Origin: Escherichia coli
GTDB taxonomy: Bacteria > Pseudomonadota > Gammaproteobacteria > Enterobacterales > Enterobacteriaceae
Assembly (NCBI RefSeq): GCF_003334765.1
Contig: NZ_QOWT01000023.1
DNA: 64,000 nucleotides
Direction: 5' to 3' (one strand)
The notes under the pieces are model-generated. The model was given only the letters and a program-made list of their open reading frames with translations. It was not told the DNA's origin and did no database searches. Both the position numbers and the translations under genes were made by a program. Below are positions 51,606 through 51,823 of this stretch, piece after piece; position 1 is the first letter of the stretch, and the number at the start of each line of letters is the position of its first letter.

Positions 51606-51823
51606 TTAAATAATTTGAGCTCCCCGGGTTGTTCGGGCAACAAAGAGTCCCAGTATACAGGCTTCAGGAATATGTTGTAGTATCAGGCTTTTCATCGCTT
51701 TAAAATGGCTACCGGCAGTAAGAACGTCATCAAAAATAACAATCCAGGGCCTGCATCCCTCCAGTAATTGTTCATTCAGTTGGTAGTTTGCCATAATCGC
51801 TTCTGGTGAGGGCCGGTTTGTTG
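51606..51823 (-). pseudogene. Phosphoribosyltransferase (ComF/PRTase-type) C-terminal remnant, 5' part removed by IS66
   Basis: Minus-strand frame ...RPWIVIFDDVLTAGSHFKAM... has the type I PRTase PRPP-binding motif (hydrophobic-DDV-x-T-x-G); the frame is open up to the IS66 terminal repeat at 51824. Confidence 0.5.

Follow-up and report, generated by a model that had tools for sequence, protein, structure and literature searches.

The stretch of DNA analyzed here (the window) comprises 64,000 nucleotides of contig NZ_QOWT01000023.1 from Escherichia coli, and the subject of this study is a truncated gene on its minus strand, at positions 51606–51823, which lies convergent to an intact primase-helicase gene and directly abuts an insertion sequence (IS) of the IS66 family. 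The minus-strand frame consists of 71 complete codons, two extra bases and a stop codon, and translates into TNRPSPEAIMANYQLNEQLLEGCRPWIVIFDDVLTAGSHFKAMKSLILQHIPEACILGLFVARTTRGAQII. It corresponds to codons 138–208 plus the stop codon of shosT, a gene of 208 codons for a predicted short-form phosphoribosyltransferase (PRTase) toxin, and it keeps the phosphoribosyl pyrophosphate (PRPP) loop IVIFDDVLTAGSH. The convergent gene, iee (49228–51588, plus strand), encodes an intact IS-excision enhancer (IEE) of 786 amino acids (aa) with an archaeo-eukaryotic primase (AEP)-type primase-polymerase and a superfamily 2 (SF2) helicase, and a spacer of 17 nt (51589–51605), which is conserved in intact loci, separates the stop codons of both genes. 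BLASTN aligned 235 nt (51589–51823) with 99.1% identity to the intact gene of E. coli Z1323CEC0017, and at the protein level a single substitution, D to N, distinguishes the remnant from its intact counterpart. The fragment alone matches the ShosT profile of PADLOC with an E-value of 6.3e-18 at profile positions 145–213 of 237, the C-terminal third, and is therefore not a chance open reading frame (ORF); a search of NCBIfam with the fragment gave no match. When compared with islands of the O104:H4 and O55:H7 USDA5905 types, the locus in the window matched at 99.9–100%. A first-pass annotation of this DNA, made from the sequence alone, had given the coordinates of the minus-strand frame and the description of the convergent helicase gene correctly, and its recognition of the C-terminus of a PRTase-fold protein with a PRPP-loop DD motif is borne out by the profile match and by the fold model and invariant aspartates described below.

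The decayed IS66-family element at the junction (ISEc22-like; 51824–52935, minus strand) was delimited from its ORFs and from the RefSeq annotation of the near-identical USDA5905 locus. It comprises the IS66 terminal repeat (51824–51844), the C-terminal 115 codons of tnpC (51861–52208, minus strand), a truncated tnpB (52238–52501, minus strand) and tnpA (52498–52935, minus strand, according to the ORF list; RefSeq gives a shorter tnpA of 405 nt in the near-identical locus L016). From a four-way alignment, it is evident that homology to shosT stops exactly at 51823 and that the 21-mer GTAAGCGTGCAGCAAGAACCG begins at 51824, just outside the C-terminus of the IS66-family tnpC, so that the fragment is indeed cut at an IS66 end, as had been proposed. 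The frame of the remnant remains open for 13 codons into the IS and ends at an in-frame tnpC stop codon. Two copies of the 21-mer are present in the window, at 51824 and 63197, where none would be expected by chance. The second exact copy (63197–63217) has the orientation of the first and is located about 11.4 kb downstream of it, and after it (63180–63830) nested fragments of two different IS66-family tnpC 3' ends were found, with a further GTAAGCGTCAACGGAG-type end near 63605. Between 51.8 and 64 kb, the DNA as a whole is a patchwork of IS66, IS3, IS200, IS1 and IS2-like pieces around an espI-type autotransporter gene.

According to the first-pass annotation, insertion of the IS had removed the N-terminal part of the gene. 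The N-terminal part is indeed gone at the IS end, but the structure of the junction does not agree with an insertion event. The IS66 element in the window carries an internal deletion of 889 nt relative to the copy in O104:H4, and no left inverted repeat was found for it in the window, since the decayed IS66 borders directly on an IS3-family element. The search for an 8-bp target duplication was therefore judged on the more complete O104:H4 copy, and none was seen: the 8 bp outside its two IS ends differ (GTTTGTTG versus GATTCAGT), and the DNA beyond the left IS end is not shosT. Given these differing flanks and the unrelated DNA beyond the left end, the loss of shosT is an IS-associated deletion or an IS-IS recombination and not a simple insertion. 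In the window and in O104:H4, shosT gives way to IS66 at an identical position (window 51824–52241 versus 9425–9842 of the O104:H4 locus) and the flank is 100% identical, whereas an alignment across flank and IS (window 51500–52241) gives 96.8%, which implies about 94% within the IS and suggests that gene conversion or recombination among IS66-family copies occurred later.

The intact form of the gene was expected to be recoverable from related genomes, and it was found in E. coli Z1323CEC0017, where iee (plus strand) is followed by the converging 208-aa gene (minus strand) and, upstream of the latter and overlapping it by 4 nt, a DprA-like gene (minus strand). In PADLOC-DB the 208-aa protein is matched by ShosT (PDLC03962, E = 1.9e-50) and the product of its upstream neighbor by ShosA (PDLC03961, E = 4e-103), with a further match to PsyrA (E = 8e-27). 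An AlphaFold model of the intact protein, built from 21 homologues, reached a mean pLDDT of 88.8 and a pTM of 0.88, and its best fold matches in the PDB are the ShosT crystal structures 8zvc (E = 2.6e-5) and 8zvd (E = 9.3e-5), followed by ComFC of Helicobacter pylori and then by PyrR, HGPRT, OPRT and PRPP synthetase. The residues D167 and D168 in the IVIFDDVLTAGSH loop do not vary among the aligned family members and coincide with the PRPP loop of HGPRT-type enzymes. Searches of the PDB by sequence were far less informative, as the single 208-aa sequence found nothing and the family profile found only marginal matches to the PRPP loop of HGPRT (E = 0.21). The intact 208-aa protein is a divergent PRTase of the ShosT/ComF kind.

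One may ask whether such a protein simply belongs to the ComF competence proteins or to the PRTases of purine or pyrimidine salvage, as one UniRef cluster is named 'ComF family protein', H. pylori ComFC ranks third among the fold matches and TIGR00201 (comF) is matched weakly (E = 0.017). The score for TIGR00201 is 15.1 bits against a cut-off of 233.55, whereas the PADLOC ShosT profile is matched at E = 1.9e-50. In addition, the short-form gene is carried on islands, plasmids and prophages, adjoins DprA genes in temperate phages of Burkholderia, Pseudomonas and Ralstonia, and is always paired with a ShosA-type DprA-like gene, while its other neighbors vary from genome to genome and include neither a com operon nor a salvage gene. 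A competence or salvage function is thus extremely improbable, in line with the first-pass view that this PRTase has no housekeeping role.

ShosTA is said to have been treated by Kimelman in 2012 and by Millman in 2022. The ShosT protein that has been studied is a 424-aa protein from E. coli APEC O1, which is toxic and loses toxicity when its PRPP loop is mutated (D331A/D332A); ShosA, a DprA-like protein, neutralizes ShosT without binding it, and the ShosTA pair protects against T7 (PMC11961720). ShosA is a dimer that binds single-stranded DNA and recruits RecA (PMC12961424). The APEC O1 pair was also tested as 'DprA+PRTase' and was active against T7 and lambda (Rousset et al. 2022, PMC9122126). 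A purine-depleting activity is also reported for this 424-aa form. Intact homologues of the gene in the window resemble this system in that they encode a PRTase-fold protein with an acidic PRPP loop, have a DprA-like gene immediately upstream in an operon and are carried on islands and prophages, in addition to matching the curated ShosT and ShosA profiles and having ShosT crystal structures as their best fold matches. They differ in that the short family, with single-domain proteins of 208–230 aa, lacks the N-terminal pyrophosphatase/HAD domain that is present in the crystallized 424-aa ShosT. This domain, a feature of the studied representative, may not define the ShosT family. Toxicity of ShosT alone, its neutralization by ShosA and phage protection were all observed with the long form (PMC11961720, PMC12961424, PMC9122126), and a search of the literature found no experiments on a short one-domain ShosT.

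To the 208-aa gene, ShosA is an almost constant companion. A PRTase-centered pattern scan, based on the family alignment and run on GTDB with each species represented by one genome, yielded 80 loci distributed over Proteobacteria, Bacteroidota, Acidobacteriota, Chloroflexota and other phyla, and in 79 of them tblastn revealed a ShosA homologue (47–84% identity) on the same strand, ending within a few bases of the start of ShosT. The sole exception (L067) is an E. coli-like contig with the same shortened version of shosT as the window. Compared with the E. coli pair, ShosA of these 80 loci is more conserved (47–84%) than ShosT (37–70%). An AEP domain near the DprA-PRTase pair was found by tblastn in none of the 79 loci from other species, and in two of them there were weak matches (24–27% identity) to the generic SF2 helicase part alone. 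In gene tables from Salmonella, Klebsiella and Achromobacter, the PRTase likewise comes after DprA, and the remaining neighbors are unrelated. In Klebsiella pneumoniae (L011–L013, 901–7657), shosA-shosT lies downstream of a 187-aa gene, equal in length to the Gp2/YfjJ-type gene of the window, and a 1021-aa gene without Pfam match; this site may be a related island hotspot without iee. ShosA is also present in the intact E. coli loci (L003 and L005–L007). In the window, neither shosA nor the 5' two-thirds of shosT was found anywhere in the 64 kb. With shosA absent, the window therefore holds a ShosT remnant and not a ShosTA system.

The first-pass annotation had suggested a two-gene system formed by the PRTase and the convergent primase-helicase. 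The latter is 97.4% identical at the nucleotide level, over 99% of the gene (BLASTN), to ECs_1305 of O157:H7 Sakai, which is annotated as 'IS-excision enhancer IEE' inside the phage-like element SpLE1. IEE of O157:H7 Sakai SpLE1 was reportedly the subject of work by Kusumoto in 2011. In Pfam, the product of iee matches AEP-TOTE (E = 2.3e-98) and ResIII/DEAD/Helicase_C, the protein from the window has the published IEE catalytic residues D142, D144, H178 and D216 as well as DECH as its helicase motif II, and the gene is flanked by YfjI/DUF3987 and Gp2-type genes as at Sakai SpLE1. Two starts have been given for the gene, GTG at 49150 in the mechanical ORF list (812 aa) and ATG at 49228 in RefSeq and the IEE literature (786 aa); the catalytic numbering fits the 786-aa form. 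IEE is a manganese-dependent polymerase with microhomology-mediated end-joining activity, for which both domains are needed (PMC9943667), it targets copy-out-paste-in insertion sequences and acts with their transposase (bioRxiv 10.1101/2023.06.07.543989), and iee alone on a plasmid restored excision of IS600 in K-12 (PMC9397093). With the published IEE (Calvo 2023, PMC9943667), the protein from the window shares the AEP plus SF2 helicase architecture, the catalytic residues and the SpLE1-like type of element, and there is no material difference, except that it is no part of a PRTase system.

The RefSeq product name of iee refers to a 'TOTE conflict system' because of the match of its AEP domain to Pfam AEP-TOTE (PF22548). 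TOTE stands for TPR, OB, TBP and Effector, according to Aravind et al. (2022) as cited in PMC12458937. No genes for TPR-CSD, TBP or effector components are annotated within 5–9 kb of iee in seven E. coli loci, and no TPR or TBP family was matched by the neighbors of iee in the window; the name reflects domain homology only.

Since a protein word-index search returned only near-identical E. coli proteins, homologues of IEE for the analysis of gene context were taken from a tblastn search of plasmids. Five homologues (81–45% aa identity) were obtained, on plasmids of E. albertii, Cupriavidus, Paraburkholderia, Paracoccus and Acinetobacter, and in none of the five cases was ShosT or ShosA detected within 5 kb, either in the annotation or by tblastn. 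On the E. albertii plasmid pESA134_1 (L100, 4397–10334), the IEE homologue (81% aa identity) lies between genes for a resolvase-type recombinase and a Tn3-family transposase and is apparently carried as cargo of a Tn3-family transposon. An iee gene beside ShosT was not found outside the SpLE1-like island lineage of E. coli.

The distribution of the locus within E. coli was analyzed by megablast of window positions 51400–51823 against 5,426 complete E. coli genomes, and the region was present in 690 of them. Some part of the shosTA locus was detected in 688 genomes, at least 80% of it in only 38, and iee in 684; about 650 genomes keep a full-length iee next to a destroyed shosTA. With at least 93% nucleotide identity, the E. 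coli copies all fall into a single island lineage, and the adjacency of shosT and iee in E. coli therefore counts as one historical event. Breakpoints were located on a 1,565-nt query (L003, 6196–7760) whose first base directly follows the iee stop codon, so that distances increase inwards from the 3' end of shosT. No fewer than three independent breakpoints were distinguished: 235 nt, at the IS66 end, in the window, O104:H4, O55:H7 USDA5905 and O103:H2; 352 nt in strain M24; and 470 nt, at an IS30 fragment, in O157, O111 and others, with an additional nonsense change from TGG to TAG in the RPW codon. In an evenly spaced sample of the ranking, which provides estimates and not counts, the 470-nt class makes up roughly two-thirds of the carriers and the 235-nt class roughly a quarter. 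In every eroded version, the antitoxin and the N-terminus of the toxin were lost together, and such a joint loss would be the only order in which a module of this type can be lost without killing the cell. That IEE contributed to the IS-adjacent deletions next door is a matter of speculation.

Decay in the opposite direction also occurs. E. coli M70 (L007, NZ_CP080118, 6863–8534) has a shosTA locus annotated as intact next to an iee cut to 138 nt by IS66, and in isolate K12a (L006) a pseudogenized iee lies beside a shosTA locus annotated as intact, so that shosTA and iee decay independently within E. coli. In both of these loci, the intact shosT and shosA genes adjoin a cdiBAI contact-dependent inhibition locus. 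On pCP127, a 127-kb plasmid of E. coli EC93, which carries a cdiBAI contact-dependent inhibition locus, the order is YfjI, Gp2-type gene, iee, shosT, shosA, cdiB and cdiA (L005, 4634–15565).

These data bear on the possibility that the PRTase and the convergent primase-helicase formed one system, perhaps a three-gene unit of helicase, PRTase and DprA like RqlH/RqlI (PsyrTA), which is now inactivated. In E. coli both genes always adjoin, with 17 nt separating their stop codons, and the sets of E. coli genomes that carry them are nearly identical; there is also a precedent in RqlH, in which a toxic PRTase domain is joined to a RecQ-like helicase and a DprA-like protein exerts control (PMC4670107). 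RqlH/RqlI, with its helicase, toxic PRTase and DprA-like neutralizer, is the nearest precedent for such an idea, but there the helicase is of the RecQ type, fused to the PRTase and part of a co-directional operon, whereas the helicase studied here is of the AEP-SF2 type, is encoded on the strand opposite to the PRTase gene and shows no conserved association with the pair. Adjacency within a single island lineage reflects one event, the 79 loci from other species lack an AEP and provide two weak generic SF2 matches only, and IEE homologues lack ShosT and ShosA in their vicinity. Furthermore, iee promotes IS excision in K-12 on its own (PMC9397093), M70 retains shosTA with hardly any iee, and most E. 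coli carriers retain iee with shosTA destroyed. A joint system is therefore highly unlikely and largely refuted already by the comparative data; iee is an independent neighbor of shosT and not its partner. The intact homologues of the PRTase gene proved to be unrelated to the helicase, and the two-gene proposal of the first-pass annotation falls, as the partner found upstream in 79 of 80 loci is ShosA and the helicase is IEE. Its more general suggestion of a toxic or anti-phage type of system holds insofar as the PADLOC profiles identify ShosTA, but the partner is the DprA-like ShosA and not the primase-helicase.

Within the remnant, RefSeq annotates only an ORF of 62 aa (51606–51794, minus strand; also in the ORF list), which starts at an internal Met of ShosT and is recorded on identical DNA as hypothetical protein WP_000035067.1. 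The annotation as a coding sequence, the retention of the PRPP loop and the 99–100% identity of the remnant in many strains might speak for a functional small protein, for instance a PRPP-binding peptide or a dominant-negative fragment. However, the ORF lacks about 137 N-terminal residues, in which 33 of the 43 invariant positions of the family alignment reside, and the remnant, with only about one-third of the PRTase fold, retains of the Rossmann-like core just one helix and the two final strands, according to the AlphaFold model of the intact protein. No convincing promoter was found upstream of the ORF, the only two consensus matches (51582–51610) being at the 3' end of the gene and thus downstream of the ORF. 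The O157 allele has a stop codon inside the same stretch, the length of the remnant varies among lineages, and recent clonal descent explains the high identity. A function for the 62-aa ORF is therefore very improbable, and it is most likely a non-functional leftover, as judged from its sequence. Since the remnant cannot form the PRTase fold and there is no antitoxin to need, it is considered inert.

Taken together, the feature is very probably a shosT pseudogene remnant of a short-form ShosTA system, eroded by IS-associated loss, beside an independent and intact iee. This interpretation builds on the identity of the fragment, its exact breakpoint, the absence of shosA, the identity of iee and the lack of linkage between shosT and iee across species, each of which was established in this analysis. 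Some points weigh against it. Pfam does not recognize the E. coli protein, and Pribosyltran is matched at E ≤ 0.001 by only 1 of 21 family members; the short form and the 424-aa ShosT of APEC O1 share about 14% identity in a structural alignment; toxicity and a defence function of the short form would have to be carried over from the long form; and the E. coli genomes with shosT remnants and those with iee form almost identical sets (688 versus 684), which alone could suggest linkage. A ComF or salvage identity, a functional small ORF and a linkage of helicase and PRTase were all rejected.

In the ancestral state, an integrative element similar to SpLE1 would have carried an operon of shosA, encoding the DprA-like antitoxin, followed by shosT, convergent to iee. 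In the lineage of the window, an IS66-family element would then have become joined to shosT at codon 137/138, and the whole of shosA, together with the 5' two-thirds of shosT, would have been lost by IS-associated deletion or recombination. What stays is an inert remnant of shosT, of which the last 71 codons are kept, and an intact iee, which acts independently and aids excision of copy-out-paste-in IS elements by microhomology-mediated end joining. For the function of the intact pair, we infer that the mechanism published for long-form ShosT may apply to the short form. It is also conceivable, but improbable, that the placement of ShosTA next to iee is not neutral, in that ShosA, which loads RecA on single-stranded DNA, and microhomology-mediated end joining by IEE might interact or IEE may have driven the repeated IS-adjacent deletions of shosTA at three or more independent points, and that the short ShosT could use an acceptor substrate other than that of the long form.

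Several further features were detected in the window. A single CRISPR-DR4 (type I-F) repeat (41718–41745, plus strand; 50 bits in Rfam) sits between a 763-aa ORF (39214–41505) and the island integrase gene (42023–43240). ARAGORN found no tRNA genes in the window, and the tRNA of the island attachment site is therefore not on this side. Closer to iee, an ORF of 620 aa (45272–47134, plus strand) without NCBIfam match is annotated as hypothetical in the O104:H4 and E2348/69 islands, and it is followed by about 1.4 kb (47135–48509) with short ORFs only, before the Gp2/YagK-YfjJ-type gene (48510–49073). On the other side, matches to STnc100 and STnc490 (54682–55026, plus strand) at the 5' end of an IS200-type tnpA presumably represent IS200-associated RNA structures, and a fragment of a group II intron (D1–D4; 113 bits) was found at 55732–55902 (plus strand).

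Both ShosTA and IEE are already known, and there is no new system in the window; as curated defence-system profiles already cover short-form ShosT, the locus offers little for discovery. The product name "TOTE conflict system ... protein" is misleading for iee here, and WP_000035067.1 and its counterparts of 58 aa (O157) and 104 aa (M24) deserve to be flagged as shosT pseudogene fragments. With 38 intact and about 650 eroded copies in E. coli, the locus provides a natural example of a toxin-antitoxin module that can be lost only toxin-first or with both genes together.
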